From Pelodictyon luteolum (GTDB lineage Bacteria > Bacteroidota > Chlorobiia > Chlorobiales > Chlorobiaceae), in the NCBI RefSeq assembly GCF_001622165.1, contig NZ_LVWG01000035.1:20566-84565 (forward strand): DNA of 64,000 bases. Direction: 5' to 3'. Under the pieces are notes generated by a model that was not told the origin of the DNA, ran no database searches, and was given only the letters and a program-made list of their open reading frames with translations. Position numbers and translations under genes: made by a program. This document shows positions 14,095 through 26,870 of this stretch, one piece after another; within the stretch, counting starts at the first letter, position 1; each line of letters starts with the position of its first letter.

Positions 14095-14134
14095 GATATT
14101 TCCTTGACGACAGTTATGAAATCAAGGAAATATC
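14095..14134. promoter_or_regulatory. Perfect 13-bp inverted repeat upstream of the porin promoter (operator or hairpin)
   Basis: GATATTTCCTTGA-N14-TCAAGGAAATATC, followed by TATAAT at 14138-14143. Confidence 0.55.
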
Positions 14135-14174
14135 ACGTATAATTCCATCTCGTAAGAGCTTTTTTTATATATAG

Positions 14175-14198
14175 CGTTATGTATTAGAGTAAATAACG
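14175..14198. promoter_or_regulatory. ModE-type operator in front of the porin gene
   Basis: CGTTATGT-ATTAGAG-TAAATAACG; the CGTTATGTA half is the exact reverse complement of TACATAACG in the modD box. Confidence 0.7.
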
Positions 14199-14200
14199 TA

Positions 14201-15370
14201 ATGCGCAACCAAACCTCCATGGCCATAAAAAAAACACTGATCATTTTATCCGCCCTTGCCGCAGCAGGATGGGGCCGGGAAGCAGCCTCCGCCAGCGAGA
14301 TCGAATGGAACTGGAAAGGCGAGGCCCTCTACCGCTACGAATCCAGCCGCCTTGATGGCGACTCCCGATTTGACGGAAGCCACCGCATCGGCCTCCACTT
14401 CGGCACATTCCCGAAAATCAACGACGAAATCAAGGGCGGCATTGAAGTTGCAACAGGCGCCAGCAACCCGACATCGCGCCTTTATGTCCTTGGAAGCGGC
14501 GATGCCTTCAGCATGAGCGACCTGATGCTCAACCAGGCCTACCTGGAAATCCGTCCGCTCTCCTACGGGCTTGAAGGCAACGCGGCCCTGAGCGCCGGCA
14601 AGCGCGACGTCAGCGAGTGCCTCGTGAGGGTCAATGACCTGCTCTGGGACACCGATGTCACCCTCGAAGGCCTTACCCTCCAGTACGGCAGGAACGGCAA
14701 GAAGCTGCAGCAGGGACTCAGCGCCACCGCTGGCTACTATATCCTTGGAGAGGTGAGTGAAACGGCCACTACAGACAAAACCGTAACTGACGACCCCGCA
14801 CTCTGGACAGCACAGCTCGCCTGGAGCGGCAAATCGGGCGGAGTCGACTATATGCTCGGGAGCAGCTACTACAAATACCTGAACATCGAGGGGTCCAGCA
14901 TCACCTGGACCTACGGAGACAAACTGTTCGGCAACACCGGCACCAGCGGCACCAGCGGAAAGCTGACCTACGATTACGATATCATTGAAATCTTCGCCAA
15001 CGCAGGCGGGAAATTCGGCAGCGGACTCCCCTGGAAGGTTTACGGACAGTATGCCAGCAACATCGCCAGCGGCGTGGACAATAATGATACCGCCTACCTC
15101 GTCGGCGGAACGCTGGGCAAAGCCGACAAGGTTGGAAAATGGTCTCTGGATGCCAACTACTGCTACCTTGAAAAAGACGCCCTTATTGGAGCATTCACCG
15201 ATGGAACCCGCTTCAAGGGCGGAACTGATGGCCAGGGCATCAAGCTCACCGCCCAGTACCAGCTCATCAAGGACCTGAATGTTGCCCTGAAATACTATAA
15301 CCACGAAAAAGTCATAGATTCAGGAAACCACTACCAGCTCTGGCAGGCCGACATGCTCGTCAAGTTCTAA
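14201..15370 (+). CDS. Putative outer-membrane porin (anion/phosphate-porin-like)
   Basis: Signal peptide (KKTLIILSALAAAGWG..ASA), amphipathic beta-strands, C-terminal QADMLVKF; start 14201 or 14219. Confidence 0.8.
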   Translation: MRNQTSMAIKKTLIILSALAAAGWGREAASASEIEWNWKGEALYRYESSRLDGDSRFDGSHRIGLHFGTFPKINDEIKGGIEVATGASNPTSRLYVLGSGDAFSMSDLMLNQAYLEIRPLSYGLEGNAALSAGKRDVSECLVRVNDLLWDTDVTLEGLTLQYGRNGKKLQQGLSATAGYYILGEVSETATTDKTVTDDPALWTAQLAWSGKSGGVDYMLGSSYYKYLNIEGSSITWTYGDKLFGNTGTSGTSGKLTYDYDIIEIFANAGGKFGSGLPWKVYGQYASNIASGVDNNDTAYLVGGTLGKADKVGKWSLDANYCYLEKDALIGAFTDGTRFKGGTDGQGIKLTAQYQLIKDLNVALKYYNHEKVIDSGNHYQLWQADMLVKF

Positions 15371-15405: not shown

Positions 15406-15435
15406 CTAAAGGCTGCCCGCACAGGCAGCCTTTAG
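15406..15435. terminator. Hairpin between convergent porin and ligA (likely bidirectional terminator)
   Basis: CTAAAGGCTGCC-CGCACA-GGCAGCCTTTAG followed by CTTTC. Confidence 0.7.
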
Positions 15436-15479: not shown

Positions 15480-19057
<3,578 letters not shown>

Positions 19058-19867: not shown

Positions 19868-20938
19868 TCAGTCCGCCACAGCTGGCCTCCCTTCGGCATC
19901 AGAAAAGAAACGCTTCCGGAGGCCAAGCGACACATTGACGAGGCCGATGAGCACCGGCACCTCCACAAGAGGCCCGATGACCGCGGCAAACGCCTCCGGC
20001 GAATGGATACCGAACACGCCGACAGCCACTGCAATGGCAAGCTCAAAGTTATTGCTCGCCGCAGTAAAGGAGAGTGTCACCGTTTTCTGATATCCGGCGC
20101 CCGCTTTCTTTCCAACGAAAAACGAGGTGAAGAACATCAGTACGAAATAAATGAACAGCGGAACTGCGATGCGTACCACGTCCATCGGGATTGCGACGAT
20201 ATAAGCACCTTTCAGCGAAAACATCGCAACAATGGTGAAGAGGAGGGCTATGAGGGTAAGGGGGCTTATGCGCCGGATGAACTCCCGCTGATACCACTCC
20301 GATCCCTTCCAGCGGATGAGAAAAAAGCGGGAAAGGAACCCTGCAGCGAAAGGTATGCCGAGATAGATGGCGACCGAAGCGGCAATTTCGCCGATGGTGA
20401 TATGGACGCTGAACGAGGAGAGCCCGAGCCATCCCGGCAGCACCGTCAGGAAAAACCATGCATAGAGCGGGAAAAACAGCACCTGGAAGATCGAGTTGAA
20501 CGCCACGAGCCCTGCGGCATACTCCCTGTCACCGCCGGCAAGGTCGTTCCAGACGATGACCATGGCGATGCAGCGGGCAAGACCGATGAGGATCAGGCCC
20601 GCCATATAGTGCGGCATGCCGGAGAGGAACAACACCGCAAGCGCGAACATCAGAAGCGGTCCGACGAGCCAGTTGAGAAGCAGCGAGAGGGAAAGTATCT
20701 TCCGGTTGGCGAACACCTCACCGAGTTCCTCATAGTGCACCTTCGCCAGCGGAGGATACATCATCACGATGAGTCCTATGGCGATGGGGATGTTGGTCGT
20801 CCCGGACTGGAAACTCCCGATGAATGCCGGAACGGCGGGAAAGGCCCAGCCAGCGGCAACACCTGCTGCCATGGCCAGGAAAATCCAGAGCGTCAGGTAG
20901 CGGTCGAGAAACGAAAGCCTGCCGGAAATCTTATTCAT
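19868..20938 (-). CDS. acr3: ACR3-family arsenite efflux transporter
   Basis: [52 protein letters not shown]. Confidence 0.96.
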
Positions 20939-21368
20939 GAGGGTCTCCCTTGATATCGTTACGATAGAACTCCCCGAAACCCTGTTTGATAAGGTCGCGG
21001 ACGCTGCGGAACACTTTCAGCACCTCCTCTTCCGTCCCGGACGCCCCGGCAGGGTCTTCAAACCCGATGTGCAGGCGTTTTCCTACCCTTCCGCTAAACA
21101 CCGGGCATGACTCATTGGCCCCGTCGCAGACCGTCACAACGTAATCGAATGGACGGGAAAGGAACCCGTCAACGCTTTTGGGAGAAGCTCCGGAAAGATC
21201 GATGCCCTCTTCAGCCATGACCTTCACGGCCATAGGATGCACCGTTCCGGAGGGTTCGGTGCCTGCGGAATAAACCTCAAGATCCAAGTCGAACGAACGG
21301 AGAAACCCCTCGGCCATCTGGCTTCGGCATGAGTTTCCCGTACAGAGAACCAGCACTGACGTTTTCAT
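20931..21368 (-). CDS. arsC: Thioredoxin-coupled arsenate reductase (LMWP family)
   Basis: [32 protein letters not shown]; within the ars cluster. Confidence 0.92.
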
Positions 21369-21390
21369 GATCGAGATGCAGTATTTATAG

Positions 21391-22416
21391 TTAGAGAACC
21401 AGATTGAACATATAACCGACGAGCACAATCCCCGAAGCGACCACCCCTGCGAACACGGCAATCAGCCTGGGCTTGAGAACCTTCCGGAGGATTATCATCT
21501 CCGGAGCCGAAAGGGCGATGACGCTCATCATGAATGCCATTACCGTGCCGAGAGCCGCGCCTTTTCCGAGCAGGGCCTGCACTACGGGAATGATCCCTGC
21601 AGCGTTCGAATACATCGGCACACCGATGAGGACGGCTGCAGGCACCGACCACCATGCACTCTGGCCCATGAGCGAGGCCATGAAGTTTTCAGGCACATAG
21701 CCATGAATGCCGGCACCAAGCCCGACACCGAGGAGGATGAACAACCACACTCTTCCAACGATTTCCCGGACATGGCCGAGCCCCTCACGCATCCGCTGCG
21801 GCCACTCCATCCGCTCAGGAATGCCCGATCCGGCATCGGCGCTCCCCTGCAGTTTCCGCACCCACTCCTCGAGGTGTTCTTCCATCCGGAGCCGACCGAT
21901 CACCAGACCGGCAATCACGGCAACTCCCAGGCCCATAGCCATATAGAGCAGCGCCACCTTCCAGCCGAACATCCCGAACAAAAGCGCCAGGGCGACTTCA
22001 TTGACCATCGGTGCCGATATCAGAAAGGAAAAGGTCACGCCGAGCGGCACGCCAGCCTGCAGAAACCCGATGAAGAGCGGCACGGCCGAACACGAACAGA
22101 ACGGTGTTACGATGCCGAGCGCTGCGGCAAGCATGTTACCTACCCCGAGACGGCGCCCCGAAAGCATGGCCCGGGTCCGCTCCGCAGAGACAAACGTATG
22201 CACCACACCCATCAGAAAAACCACTGCCGTAAGAAGCATCAGCACTTTCGGCACCTCGTACAGGAAGAAATGCAATGCTTCACCAAAAGGCACGGACCGG
22301 CTGAGGCCGAGCATTCCGACCAGCACCTCCGCACCTCCCTCGAGCCTCAGGTAGAGAAACACCCAGAGAAGGGCCGCCAGAAGTAACCCTCCCCACCACA
22401 ACAGCGACTGTTTCAT
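21391..22416 (-). CDS. arsP: ArsP/DUF318-family permease
   Basis: TPFCSCSAVP, FSFLISAPMVNE, IGVPMYSN, FMMSVIALSAPE. Confidence 0.85.
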   Translation of the reverse strand: MKQSLLWWGGLLLAALLWVFLYLRLEGGAEVLVGMLGLSRSVPFGEALHFFLYEVPKVLMLLTAVVFLMGVVHTFVSAERTRAMLSGRRLGVGNMLAAALGIVTPFCSCSAVPLFIGFLQAGVPLGVTFSFLISAPMVNEVALALLFGMFGWKVALLYMAMGLGVAVIAGLVIGRLRMEEHLEEWVRKLQGSADAGSGIPERMEWPQRMREGLGHVREIVGRVWLFILLGVGLGAGIHGYVPENFMASLMGQSAWWSVPAAVLIGVPMYSNAAGIIPVVQALLGKGAALGTVMAFMMSVIALSAPEMIILRKVLKPRLIAVFAGVVASGIVLVGYMFNLVL

Positions 22417-22429
22417 GCCTCTCTCCCCC

Positions 22430-22714
22430 TCAGCAGCAGGATGAGCCCGAAGAACCCTTGCAGCAGCACCCTTTGGCTTTCGGCCGAAGCAGCGAATGCA
22501 GTTCATCAGCTGAAGGTACCCTGCCCGCCGAGCGGACCTCACCATCGACCACAAGTGCCGGGGTGGAGAGCACATTGTAGGACATGATCTGCTGAATGTC
22601 CTGCACCTTTTCGACCTCAGCCACAATGCCGTCTGCAGCAATGGCAGCCTGTACCGCATCGGCAAGCTGGTTGCATTTTGCGCAACCGGTTCCGAGAATT
22701 TTTACCTGGATCAT
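22430..22714 (-). CDS. Small thioredoxin-like redox disulfide protein with a Cys-rich tail
   Basis: ILGTGCAKC, STPALVVDG, C-terminus GCCCKGSSGSSCC. Confidence 0.88.
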   Translation of the reverse strand: MIQVKILGTGCAKCNQLADAVQAAIAADGIVAEVEKVQDIQQIMSYNVLSTPALVVDGEVRSAGRVPSADELHSLLRPKAKGCCCKGSSGSSCC

Positions 22715-22746
22715 AGTGTTCTCCTGTCTTCTGTTTAAAAAAGTTA

Positions 22747-22762
22747 ATCGCAAATGAACGAT
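22747..22762. promoter_or_regulatory. Putative ArsR operator, internal copy
   Basis: ATCGCAAATGAACGAT (ATCG-N8-CGAT); resembles the copy upstream of arsR. Confidence 0.6.
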
Positions 22763-22807
22763 TATTGGAATCAAAAAAAACAAACCACATCAGAAGCTGC
22801 GCCTAAA

Positions 22808-23152
22808 TCAACGGCAGTCGCATGATTCCGCACCCTCTATCTTAAAAAAAACCGCAAAGAGCTCCTTCGCCTCTGCCCACTTTTCACGGTTGATGCAATA
22901 ACGGACCTTTGGTGGATTGATCTCTCCCTGAATGAGGCCGGCCTCGAGAAGCGCCTTCAGATGCTGCGAAATCGTGGACTGCGCCATCGGAATCAACGTA
23001 GTCAGCTCTCCGGTGAAACAACAGGCCTCCTGCTGCAGCAACTGGAGGATGCGGATACGCACCGGGTGGCTGAGCGCTTTGGCCAGTACCGCCAGCGTTT
23101 CTTCCCCACGGCTGTAGTCGACCGGGGTCAACGATCTTTTCATTCTCTCCAT
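22808..23152 (-). CDS. arsR: ArsR/SmtB-family repressor
   Basis: KALSHPVRIRIL, ACCF, STISQHLKAL..AGLI, C-terminal SCDCR. Confidence 0.9.
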   Translation of the reverse strand: MERMKRSLTPVDYSRGEETLAVLAKALSHPVRIRILQLLQQEACCFTGELTTLIPMAQSTISQHLKALLEAGLIQGEINPPKVRYCINREKWAEAKELFAVFFKIEGAESCDCR

Positions 23153-23168
23153 ATCAATCAATTAGTTC

Positions 23169-23415: not shown

Positions 23416-23439
23416 CGGTATGCAAACGATTACATAACG
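23416..23439. promoter_or_regulatory. ModE-type operator upstream of modD-modABC
   Basis: CGGTATGC-AAACGAT-TACATAACG; fits the TATAT-N7-TAYAT ModE consensus geometry; 26 bp before the modD ATG. Confidence 0.78.
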
Positions 23440-23465: not shown

Positions 23466-24317
23466 ATGATACTCTACCAACTCCCTGATACTGATATCGA
23501 ACGATTCATCGAAGAGGACGTCCCCTATGGAGACCTCACTACTGCAGTGCTCGAAATAGGTGAACAGCCCGGAAGAATCACCTTTACGACAAGGCATGAA
23601 ACAACCCTCTCCTGCACTGAAGAGGCCGGGCGGATACTTGAGCGCTGCGGCGCACGGGTAACCCTCCTTACCCCGAGCGGCACCGGTGTCCCATCCGGCA
23701 CCATGTTCCTTTCGGCGGAAGGATCGGCCTCAAGCCTGCATGCTGCATGGAAAGTGGCCCTGAACATACTCGAGTATGCCTCGGGCATATCCACGAGAAC
23801 CGCCGGCATCGTTACAAGCGCCCGGAGCGCCAACCCGGCCATCAGCATCGCAACCACCAGAAAGTCGTTCCCCGGGACGAAAAAAGCCGCCATCAAGGCC
23901 ATCCTTGCAGGAGGCGCAACCCCGCACCGGCTCGGGCTGTCGGAATCCATCCTGGTATTCCGCCAGCACACGGAGTTCATGGGCGGCCTCGACCGCTTAT
24001 TGGAGCGTCTCCCTGAAATAAAGAAACAGGCTCCGGAACACAAGATTCTGGTGGAGGCCGACGGACCCGAAGAGGCGCTCAGGATTGCCGCTGCCGGAGC
24101 CGATGTCGTGCAGGTCGACAAACTCTCACCGGAACGCCTTGTGGATCTGGTCCATGCCATCAGAAATATTGCTCCCGACATCAAGATCTCGGCCGCAGGC
24201 GGCATCACCCCTGAAAACGCAGGCATCTATGCTGCAACCGGCATCGACATCATCGTGCTCTCATCGGTCTATTTCGGAAAACCCGCAGACATTGCTGCCG
24301 CCATGCAGTGCATATAA
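23466..24317 (+). CDS. modD: ModD protein (NadC/QAPRTase-like)
   Basis: EDVPYGDLTT, TTRKSFPG, HRLGLSESILVFRQH, AAGGI; first gene of the mod operon. Confidence 0.88.
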   Translation: MILYQLPDTDIERFIEEDVPYGDLTTAVLEIGEQPGRITFTTRHETTLSCTEEAGRILERCGARVTLLTPSGTGVPSGTMFLSAEGSASSLHAAWKVALNILEYASGISTRTAGIVTSARSANPAISIATTRKSFPGTKKAAIKAILAGGATPHRLGLSESILVFRQHTEFMGGLDRLLERLPEIKKQAPEHKILVEADGPEEALRIAAAGADVVQVDKLSPERLVDLVHAIRNIAPDIKISAAGGITPENAGIYAATGIDIIVLSSVYFGKPADIAAAMQCI

Positions 24318-24344
24318 GCCAAGAAACAGCAAATAACGAACCCC

Positions 24345-25118
24345 ATGCAGTCCCAATCAACCCGCCCACTTGCAGGCACTCTTCTGCAGATTGCATTCAT
24401 CTGCCTTATGCTCTTCACAGGCCCCCTGCATGCGATGGCAGGCGAGCTGCGACTCAGTGCAGGGGCCGGCATGCGCGATGCCCTCAAGGAACTGACGTCA
24501 CGTTATTCAAAACAGCATCCCGGAACAATCATCATCAGCAACTTCGCCTCCTCAGGAACGCTGGCAGGCCAGATCATGAACGGAGCTCCGGTGGATATCT
24601 TCATTTCAGCCAACAGGAAATGGATGGATTTCCTCAAAACAGAGAATGCCGTTGACCCGGCAAGCATACAGCTCTTTACCAGAAACACTCTGGTCTTTAC
24701 CGGGACGGGCGCAACGAAGGTCCTGATGATGCAGGACCTCGTGAAGCTCAATAAAATCGCCATCGGGAGCCCGGGCAGTGTGCCGGCCGGCGACTATGCG
24801 ATGTCGGCCATAACCGGCGCAGGGCTCCGGAGCAGACTGGAGGGAAAGCTGGTCATGGCCAGGGATGTACGGGAGTGCCTGATGTATGCAGAGCTCGGTG
24901 AAGTGGACGGCGGATTTGTCTACGCAACCGACGCTATCCTTGCCAAGAAGGCAACCACCCGCTTCGAAGTACCGCAAAAGCTTTACCCCCCGATCGAGTT
25001 CCCTATGGCTTTGACCCACAGCGGGGCAAAAAACAATGAAGCCCGAGCGTTCCTCCTGTACCTCCGCAGCCCCGAAGCCCGAACGGTCCTGAAGAAATAC
25101 GGATACAAGGTCAACTGA
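24345..25118 (+). CDS. modA: Molybdate ABC transporter substrate-binding protein
   Basis: Signal peptide, SAGAG, FASSGTLA, GAPVDIFISA, SVPAGDYA, GFVYATDA. Confidence 0.93.
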   Translation: MQSQSTRPLAGTLLQIAFICLMLFTGPLHAMAGELRLSAGAGMRDALKELTSRYSKQHPGTIIISNFASSGTLAGQIMNGAPVDIFISANRKWMDFLKTENAVDPASIQLFTRNTLVFTGTGATKVLMMQDLVKLNKIAIGSPGSVPAGDYAMSAITGAGLRSRLEGKLVMARDVRECLMYAELGEVDGGFVYATDAILAKKATTRFEVPQKLYPPIEFPMALTHSGAKNNEARAFLLYLRSPEARTVLKKYGYKVN

Positions 25119-25128
25119 AAGGGGACTC

Positions 25129-25818
25129 ATGATGCAGCTCACCACCCAGGATATCGAAGCCATACGGCTCTCACTGCAGATTGCCCTGACAGCGACCATC
25201 GTTTCCCTTCCTCCCGGCTTTATGGTGGCGTGGTTGCTCTCATTCAGAAACTTCAGGGGGAAAGTGCTGCTTGAAGTCTTCATCAACCTGCCGCTCACCC
25301 TGCCGCCGGTCGTCATTGGCTACTTCCTCCTGTTGATGCTCGGCCGCAACGGATGGCCGGGCAGACTGCTTGATGCTGCCGGAATCCAGCTTGTCTTCAC
25401 CTGGCAGGCTGCCGTCATTGCCGCCGCGACCATCGGATTTCCCTTGATGGTGCGATCCATCCGGCTCGGCATGGAATCCATCAACCCCCAGATCATCGAC
25501 GCGGCAAAAAGCCTTGGCTCGTCGAAGCCCGATATTCTCTTCACCATCGTTCTTCCCCTCTCGCTGCGGGGAATCCTTGCGGGCTCTTCACTCATGTTCG
25601 CCCGAAGCCTCGGCGAGTTCGGCGCCACCATCATGGTGGCAGGCAACATCCCCTTCGTTACCCAGACCATTCCACTCGCCATCTATGAATATGCCAGCTC
25701 GCCGGGAGGTACAGGGATGGCAATGACGCTCTGCATCGTCTCGGTCACCATCTCCGTCATCGTACTCTTCCTGCACGAATCGCTTACCCGAAGGATACAG
25801 AGGGAGGCAGAGGGATGA
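25129..25818 (+). CDS. modB: Molybdate ABC transporter permease
   Basis: LPLTLPPVVIGY, FARSLGEFGAT, QTIPLAIY. Confidence 0.95.
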   Translation: MMQLTTQDIEAIRLSLQIALTATIVSLPPGFMVAWLLSFRNFRGKVLLEVFINLPLTLPPVVIGYFLLLMLGRNGWPGRLLDAAGIQLVFTWQAAVIAAATIGFPLMVRSIRLGMESINPQIIDAAKSLGSSKPDILFTIVLPLSLRGILAGSSLMFARSLGEFGATIMVAGNIPFVTQTIPLAIYEYASSPGGTGMAMTLCIVSVTISVIVLFLHESLTRRIQREAEG

Positions 25819-26870
25819 GGCTCCGATTTGATGTCAAAAAATCGCAGGGAAGTTTCACGCTCGATGCTTCAGCCGACATTACCGGGGAACGGATCGGCAT
25901 CTTCGGCCGTTCCAGCAGCGGGAAATCCACCCTCATTCACCTTCTTTCCGGTCTGCTCGAGCCGGACAGGGGCGAAATCTTCCTTGATGATGACTGCCTT
26001 TTCAGCAGCAGGGACCACATCAACATATCTCCCCACCGCCGCCGCATCGGCCTGGTCTTCCAGCAGGCAATGCTCTTCCCCCACCTCAGCGTAAAAAGCA
26101 ACCTCTACTACGGATGGCGCCGCTGCCCTAAAGAGCTCCGCAGGGTCGATCCGGAAGAACTCACCTGCACCCTGAAACTTGAAGGACTGCTGGAGCGGGG
26201 TGTAGGGAACCTTTCAGGGGGAGAGCGTCAGAGGGTTGCGCTTGGCAGAGCAGTGCTCGCCAGCCCCCGCCTGCTCGTCATGGACGAACCCCTCTCGGCA
26301 CTCGACGACACACTCCGTTTTCAGGTCATCCCTTACCTCCGGAGCGTCAGCGAGCAGTTCCGGATACCCTGCATCTTCATTTCGCATTCGGTCCTTGAAA
26401 TGCAGCTCATGGCAGAGCGCATACTGCTGGTGGAAAACGGATCCGTAACCGGCCCGGCAACCCCAGACGAACTCGCCCGCAAAGCCATGGCAACCAGCCG
26501 ACGGGGCTATGTAAACCTCCTGCAGCTCTCAGGCCCAGCATGCAGTTCCGGCCTGTACCGCTACCCGTGGGGCGATGGGCAGCTGGTCATTTCAGACGGA
26601 AGCAACACCAACTCGTCGCTCTTCGAGCTCTCCTCACGGGACATCATCCTCTTCAGGAAACACCCGGAAGCCATCAGCGCCCGAAACATGCTCGAATGCC
26701 GTGTCGAGGAGCTCTTCAGCTCCGAAAACAGAGTCGGCGTTGTCCTGCGTTCAGCAAACCGAACCCTTGTTGCCGAAATAGTCCGGTCAGCTGCCGAAGA
26801 GCTGGATATCACCATTGGAACAACAGTCTTTGCGGCAATCAAGGCATCGGCGTTCCGCCGCCTCCTCTGA
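25815..26870 (+). CDS. modC: Molybdate ABC transporter ATPase with C-terminal TOBE/Mop domain
   Basis: GRSSSGKS, LFPHLSV, LSGGERQRVA, ISARN, IKASA. Confidence 0.95.
   Translation: MRLRFDVKKSQGSFTLDASADITGERIGIFGRSSSGKSTLIHLLSGLLEPDRGEIFLDDDCLFSSRDHINISPHRRRIGLVFQQAMLFPHLSVKSNLYYGWRRCPKELRRVDPEELTCTLKLEGLLERGVGNLSGGERQRVALGRAVLASPRLLVMDEPLSALDDTLRFQVIPYLRSVSEQFRIPCIFISHSVLEMQLMAERILLVENGSVTGPATPDELARKAMATSRRGYVNLLQLSGPACSSGLYRYPWGDGQLVISDGSNTNSSLFELSSRDIILFRKHPEAISARNMLECRVEELFSSENRVGVVLRSANRTLVAEIVRSAAEELDITIGTTVFAAIKASAFRRLL

Follow-up and report, generated by a model that had tools for sequence, protein, structure and literature searches.

The porin gene analyzed here, which lies in a 64,000-nucleotide stretch of DNA (the window), probably encodes an extra porin placed behind the switch of the molybdate importer and made when molybdenum is scarce, as judged from its sequence and from that of its relatives. 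Little dissolved molybdenum is available in the sulfidic water in which green sulfur bacteria use Mo-nitrogenase to fix nitrogen, and the usual view dismisses the outer-membrane passage of molybdate as occurring "through general porins"; a porin coregulated with modABC would thus be a concrete and testable first step of molybdenum acquisition, and this gene would be an added member of the ModE regulon. This analysis established the motif together with its conservation and its uniqueness in the genome, as well as the porin fold, the existence of a modE gene, and the status of the porin gene as a paralogue. From these we infer the binding of ModE, the direction of regulation, and the substrate. 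The features of the locus are collected in table 1.

Table 1. Predicted features of the accessory porin locus and the modDABC operon (positions are those of the window)
Feature	Position	Strand	Basis or remark
Perfect 13-bp inverted repeat, GATATTTCCTTGA-N14-TCAAGGAAATATC	14095..14134	.	Compensatory changes in Chlorobium sp. N1
TATAAT, -10-like hexamer, with weak -35 ATGAAA (14116-14121)	14138..14143	+	GTATAnT core kept in G034 and G043
Short hairpin followed by T7 run, immediately 5' of the box	14149..14166	+	AAGAGCT plus T-run common to Prosthecochloris loci
Predicted ModE operator (Mo-box), 24-bp dyad CGTTATGTA-N6-TAAATAACG	14175..14198	.	Best consensus match genome-wide
Accessory Porin_5 outer-membrane porin, 383 aa, signal peptide, C-terminal ...VKF	14219..15370	+	Pfam PF16930
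GC-rich hairpin AAAGGCTGCC-N6-GGCAGCCTTT between the porin gene and convergent ligA	15408..15433	.	Sequence
Predicted ModE operator before modD (CGGTATGCA-N6-TACATAACG)	23416..23439	.	13/16 consensus; kept in G034, G043, and L140
modD-modA-modB-modC molybdate ABC importer operon	23466..26870	+	NCBIfam TIGR01334, TIGR01256, TIGR02141, and TIGR02142, all above cut-off

The whole porin box reads CGTTATGTATTAGAGTAAATAACG, with the halves CGTTATGT-ATTAGAG-TAAATAACG. The original prediction, made from the letters of the window, had assigned to it the same 24-bp geometry as the box before modD (CGGTATGCAAACGATTACATAACG; in halves, CGGTATGC-AAACGAT-TACATAACG) and had noted that one half-site recurs on the opposite strand; both observations were confirmed, the left half-site of the porin box (CGTTATGTA) being the reverse complement of the right half-site of the modD box (TACATAACG). 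Within the 64-kb window, the pattern CGNTAT-N12-ATAACG with at most one mismatch occurred only at these two sites (0.28 expected), and the count of the relaxed dyad pattern was reached in none of 100 shuffles. The genome-wide motif scan that had been proposed was performed with an independent consensus, chosen against circularity, by scoring the 2.15-Mb genome at the 16 specified bases of the E. coli ModE consensus CGnTATATA-N6-TATATAnCG (quoted in PMC545781). The porin box matched 14 of the 16 bases and was the single best site in the genome, sites of this grade being expected 0.2 times per locally shuffled genome; three sites scored 13/16, namely the modD box, a box on contig C32 in the nif/modE region, and one apparently unrelated site. 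Compared with a control pattern, the motif was enriched across 81 genomes, and it was also observed 5' of modA in G033, G036, and P. vibrioformis DSM 260 (G027), the last of which carries it directly 5' of both its modA genes and has modE as well. A chance occurrence of the porin box was rejected on the basis of the window and genome scans and of the box-free starts of the housekeeping homologues described below. The dyad is a predicted ModE operator of the E. coli type, and control of the accessory porin by ModE is well supported and, in our judgment, very probable.

The box had been placed 2 bp before the first ATG of the porin. This distance was correct for the start of the listed open reading frame (ATG 14201), but that ATG was not conserved in the orthologue alignment and was rejected as the start, since the orthologues begin at the MKKTL position; the conserved start is ATG 14219 (MAIKKTL..., signal-peptide-like; MAIKKTLIILSALAAAGW...), which is probably the true one. 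Thus, 20 nt separate the end of the box from the likely start codon, its centre lies 32 nt before that codon, and its placement relative to the gene is the same as that of the modD box, which lies 26 nt 5' of the modD ATG. An activator site of class I or class II, centred at -41.5 or farther 5', would put the transcription start inside the porin open reading frame; the box must thus overlap or follow the promoter, which is the repressing position that the original prediction had assigned to it and is unlike the placement of an activator. Repression of the porin at high molybdenum is likely. Since ModE is generally known to activate some promoters in E. coli (moaA and dmsA), we also considered that ModE at this box activates the porin when molybdenum is plentiful, or that the dyad has no function or is the site of a different regulator. 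However, an activator position is geometrically excluded by the 20-nt distance, the porin and modD boxes have their placement in common, and conservation together with genome-wide uniqueness speaks against a fortuitous dyad; these readings are highly improbable.

The TATAAT described upstream of the box was indeed present and may be a promoter element of the porin, and the A/T-rich box itself could contain a -10 element. The perfect inverted repeat lies upstream of this hexamer, and in Chlorobium sp. N1 its dyad was preserved by compensatory changes on both arms. That the repeat is merely the terminator of the upstream methyltransferase gene is doubtful, because in the metagenome-assembled relative L140 this gene was replaced and the repeat was retained with the porin; it may serve as a further operator or as a structural insulator. 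No Moco riboswitch or other relevant known RNA element was matched in Rfam between 13900 and 23600 at E <= 1. Downstream of the porin gene, the GC-rich hairpin is likely a terminator, which would render the gene monocistronic; a computational scan did not flag it. In the region between the porin gene and modD, an arsenic-resistance set was observed on the minus strand (window 19868-23161), composed of arsR, an ArsP-type permease gene, and a gene for an ACR3/SBF-family transporter; in L140 this set has shrunk to arsR and a thioredoxin-like gene, so that the distance from the porin to modD is 2.7 kb. A 516-aa open reading frame on the minus strand (window 17507-19057), between ligA and an ABC ATPase gene, had no NCBIfam match at E <= 1e-5.

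As the original prediction had stated, no modE is present in the 64-kb window. The search of the genome that it called for revealed one full-length copy, the only modE of the genome, on contig C32 (G000:C32:148272-149084). Its product scored 104 bits with TIGR00637 (above cut-off), matched HTH_1 and two TOBE/Mop domains as well as NF007957 (E 1.5e-46), and is thus composed of a winged helix (the ModE N-terminal domain) and two Mop domains; the gene that follows is moaA. Three more ModE boxes were observed 3 kb upstream of modE, just after nifK-nifE-nifN-nifB-ferredoxin. Two of them precede a gene for a 132-aa c-type cytochrome with a CSSCH motif, and the third precedes a gene for a 743-aa signal-peptide protein, a divergent TonB-dependent receptor (TIGR01783, E 4.8e-25, below cut-off; FhuA barrel, E 1e-6) that had been missed in the original prediction, as had the extra status of the porin beside a housekeeping copy and the doubtful first ATG. 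Each of the five ModE boxes of the genome, at the porin, at modD, twice at the cytochrome, and at the receptor, ends 9-26 nt ahead of a start codon. The nif-adjacent boxes with the cytochrome and receptor genes, followed by modE and moaA (G000:C32:145242-149084; L008 7243-11085), form a candidate module for energised outer-membrane molybdenum uptake.

We addressed the evolutionary characteristics of the box by analyzing the relatives of the porin. We detected porin homologues in 76 of the 81 Chlorobiaceae genomes that were sampled, and the genome analyzed here carries a second, housekeeping Porin_5 copy (G000:C18:26201-27277) that is 42-43% identical to the porin of the window. In a maximum-likelihood tree, the window porin grouped with other extra copies in a clade of strong support (100/99), within which three subclades were visible. 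The Chlorobium subclade (ii) comprised this genome, G034 (96% protein identity to the window porin), MAG L140 (90%), and Chlorobium sp. N1 (G043; 78%); one box was present in all four members, and modDABC lay 2.7-9.6 kb away. In these three relatives the porin box was kept while the flanks diverged, the box of Chlorobium sp. N1 matching 15 of the 16 consensus bases, and in L140 a transposase remnant replaced the upstream gene, whereas the inverted repeat, the -10-like hexamer, the T-run, and the box were all kept. The Prosthecochloris subclade (i), consisting of P. vibrioformis DSM 260 and two metagenome contigs, showed two boxes in each of its three members; its locus, between thiM and a PAS histidine kinase gene, is unrelated to that of subclade (ii), and the proteins of the two subclades are about 50% identical. 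The conservation upstream of orthologues that the original prediction had proposed to check was thus found in all orthologues identified and extended to this sister subclade. AAGAGCT followed by a T-run was observed just 5' of the proximal box in subclades (i) and (ii), which suggests that the operator was ancestral to both and was not gained twice. Between the two boxes of P. vibrioformis DSM 260 (L015 2600-2631), and also in L146 and L156, a palindrome with a T-run (AGCCTTAAAAAAAGAGCTCTTTTTTTAAGGCT) was observed; this element resembles a terminator between the distal and the proximal operator.

Subclade (iii), consisting of L144, L145, G033a, and G036a, had no box in any of its four members. 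A variant box was considered for G036a and G033a, in both of which a 23-nt near-dyad was found upstream, and was rejected, as no canonical site of the 24-bp geometry was present there. In L144 (3001-6855), the porin heads a cluster of genes for a soxJ-like flavocytochrome flavoprotein, a c-type cytochrome, soxY, and soxZ, and in G036a (L012 1429-3989) a flavoprotein gene follows the porin, with nothing further within the fetched locus; the Sox context of the subclade rests on these two loci, the ones among the four whose flanks were read. The L144 porin of this box-less subclade may be the channel through which thiosulfate crosses the outer membrane.

Outside this clade, boxes were absent from the 300 nt upstream of 78 housekeeping porin genes and from the ~800 kb of their loci as a whole, no ModE box was found near the porin start in about 120 housekeeping homologues, and no box lay near a porin gene in the 15 Chlorobaculum genomes with listed box coordinates; among the metagenome loci, the sole out-of-clade box (L174) was 1.2 kb from the porin. 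ModE boxes were also sought before the ~50%-identical housekeeping copies of Prosthecochloris and were not found, a different conserved upstream sequence being present instead: in L017-L028, a strongly conserved block, CCGTAACAGTTCCTTAACAAAACGAGTGGTAGATTAGCT ... AAACCAGAAAACATAAT, which is not a ModE dyad. Among the roughly 150 species of Chlorobiaceae, no more than about 5 carry a boxed porin, corresponding to about five species-level lineages; it is thus an accessory adaptation that is not essential for molybdenum supply.

The original prediction had described the protein as anion-porin-like, a description that was not borne out. The porin matched Pfam PF16930 (Porin_5) with 87.1 bits (cut-off 22; E 1.4e-24), and Porin_O_P (PF07396) gave no match. 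A search of PDB sequences with the porin yielded no homologue, and the LbtU siderophore porin model (NF033652) was rejected at 26 bits against a cut-off of 90. AlphaFold2, run with a 56-sequence alignment, confidently predicted a 16-strand barrel (pLDDT 87.2, pTM 0.84); the protein has a hydrophobic helix at its N-terminus and ends in ...MLVKF, with an aromatic last residue. When this model was compared with the PDB by Foldseek, the best match was the barrel of OmpM1 (E 1.6e-14, TM 0.63), followed by OprB, MOMP, PorB, and OmpF/PhoE, and neither OprP nor OprO was among the best 50 structural matches. The modelled fold, which matched 16-strand porins, is that of a general porin. An OprP-like anion porin was rejected, since neither sequence nor fold supported it and the lumen-facing arginines of strands 1-2 were lost, not gained.

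The predicted pore of the accessory clade has clearly been remodelled. R37, R54, N88, D330, and G356 are invariant in 77 other family members, and in the accessory clade they are replaced by L/F/M, by S (Y in one member), by L/V/M, by T, and by A/S, respectively. In addition, the Chlorobium subclade lacks R52, R58, and R60, which belong to an alternating arginine row on strand 2, and has lost many acidic residues in its loops. An arginine-ladder anion filter would show the reverse of this loss of arginine, as read from the alignment. Net charge was also considered as an argument for anion selectivity and was set aside; the boxed window porin (-10) is less negative than the housekeeping copy (-25), but the boxed Prosthecochloris copies (-23) make the argument only partly consistent.

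These features bear directly on the substrate. Thiosulfate, the substrate of Sox, has the same charge as molybdate and a similar shape, and the Chlorobium porin, with its predicted coregulation with modABC, is loosely linked to modDABC on the chromosome. Because the two gene contexts of the clade point to two tetrahedral dianions, thiosulfate and molybdate, each required in the periplasm by the neighbouring system, molybdate is a plausible, if unproven, physiological permeant, and on balance we consider it somewhat more likely than not. More tentatively, and as a possibility that we do not favor outright, the accessory clade as a whole may represent outer-membrane channels specialised for tetrahedral dianions, with a ModE-switched pore for molybdate or tungstate and a Sox-linked pore for thiosulfate, both derived from a general porin by loss of the lumen network R37/R54/N88/D330. 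If so, the ModE-switched branch would be the long-missing dedicated entry pore for molybdate and tungstate, and the Sox-linked and ModE-linked subclades would offer a natural comparison for what suits a porin to one oxyanion.

It is also conceivable, though rather unlikely, that ModE control is real but that the pore is not a specific one; under molybdenum limitation the cell would exchange its porin for, or supplement it with, a pore whose constriction is wider or carries less charge, and which admits many small solutes and not molybdate in particular. The general-porin fold agrees with this, as does the existence of a sister subclade that serves another pathway, Sox, and the lost lumen arginines and loop acidic residues suggest a weakened constriction field rather than a binding site. 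Nevertheless, a non-selective gain in permeability offers no obvious need for ModE control to be maintained across 50% protein divergence, and both contexts of the clade concern tetrahedral dianions. Less probable still is a substrate other than molybdate, either a molybdenum or tungsten species characteristic of sulfidic water, such as thiomolybdate, tungstate, or a molybdenum complex, or a sulfur oxyanion for which ModE control would reflect a coupling to nitrogenase or to sulfur metabolism and not the entry of molybdate. The host is a sulfide-dependent phototroph with a Sox-linked sister subclade of its porin, and the boxed TonB-dependent receptor and c-type cytochrome hint at uptake beyond free molybdate; however, the coregulated modA encodes a molybdate-type binding protein (TIGR01256), and no tungstate-specific genes were seen in the 64-kb window.

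Taken together, the explanation towards which we lean, with modest confidence, is that a ModE-repressed accessory porin is induced with modDABC and raises the permeability of the outer membrane for molybdate. Molybdate-bound ModE would occupy the box at or just downstream of the porin promoter and block transcription, and when molybdate becomes scarce ModE would leave the box. The resulting derepression would coinduce modDABC, the TonB-dependent receptor cluster beside modE, and the extra Porin_5 channel, which is paralogous to the housekeeping porin and remodelled relative to it. Through this channel, molybdate, and probably tetrahedral dianions that resemble it, such as tungstate, would cross the outer membrane more readily, and periplasmic ModA would then capture the molybdate.

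The predicted system resembles known ModE systems in several respects. The 24-bp dyad CGnTATATA-N6-TATATAnCG is that of the ModE/modA operator of E. coli and of the MopA/MopB Mo-boxes of Rhodobacter capsulatus, the regulator has the winged helix-turn-helix plus di-Mop architecture of E. coli ModE, and, as at the modA operator of E. coli, the motif stands before a molybdate ABC importer and would overlap the promoter or transcription start. Unlike the systems of E. coli and R. capsulatus, the target here is an outer-membrane porin, the host is a green sulfur bacterium, and the system is known from sequence alone. Studholme & Pau 2003, which reportedly describes ModE sites in green sulfur bacteria, was outside our search of the literature on ModE-controlled outer-membrane proteins, and that search found no ModE-controlled porin.

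The housekeeping Porin_5 of Chlorobiaceae (C18:26201-27277) shares the family and the predicted 16-strand barrel with the accessory porin; it differs in having no ModE box and in keeping R37, R54, N88, and D330, at all of which the accessory clade has other residues. In regulatory logic, the closest parallels are PhoE of E. coli and OprP/OprO of Pseudomonas, which are likewise extra porins under a regulator of oxyanion scarcity and are coinduced with a high-affinity ABC importer, as is predicted here; however, the regulator is PhoB in those systems and ModE in this one. The accessory porin further differs from OprP/OprO in belonging to Porin_5 (PF16930) with no Porin_O_P match, and in having no arginine/lysine ladder and having lost conserved arginines. 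In Pseudomonas aeruginosa, a T6SS-secreted ModA and the outer-membrane protein IcmP have been proposed as a dedicated outer-membrane route for molybdate, according to the part of the literature cited in PMC11734730. That route uses a secreted binding protein and a receptor, whereas the route predicted here is a regulated diffusion channel.
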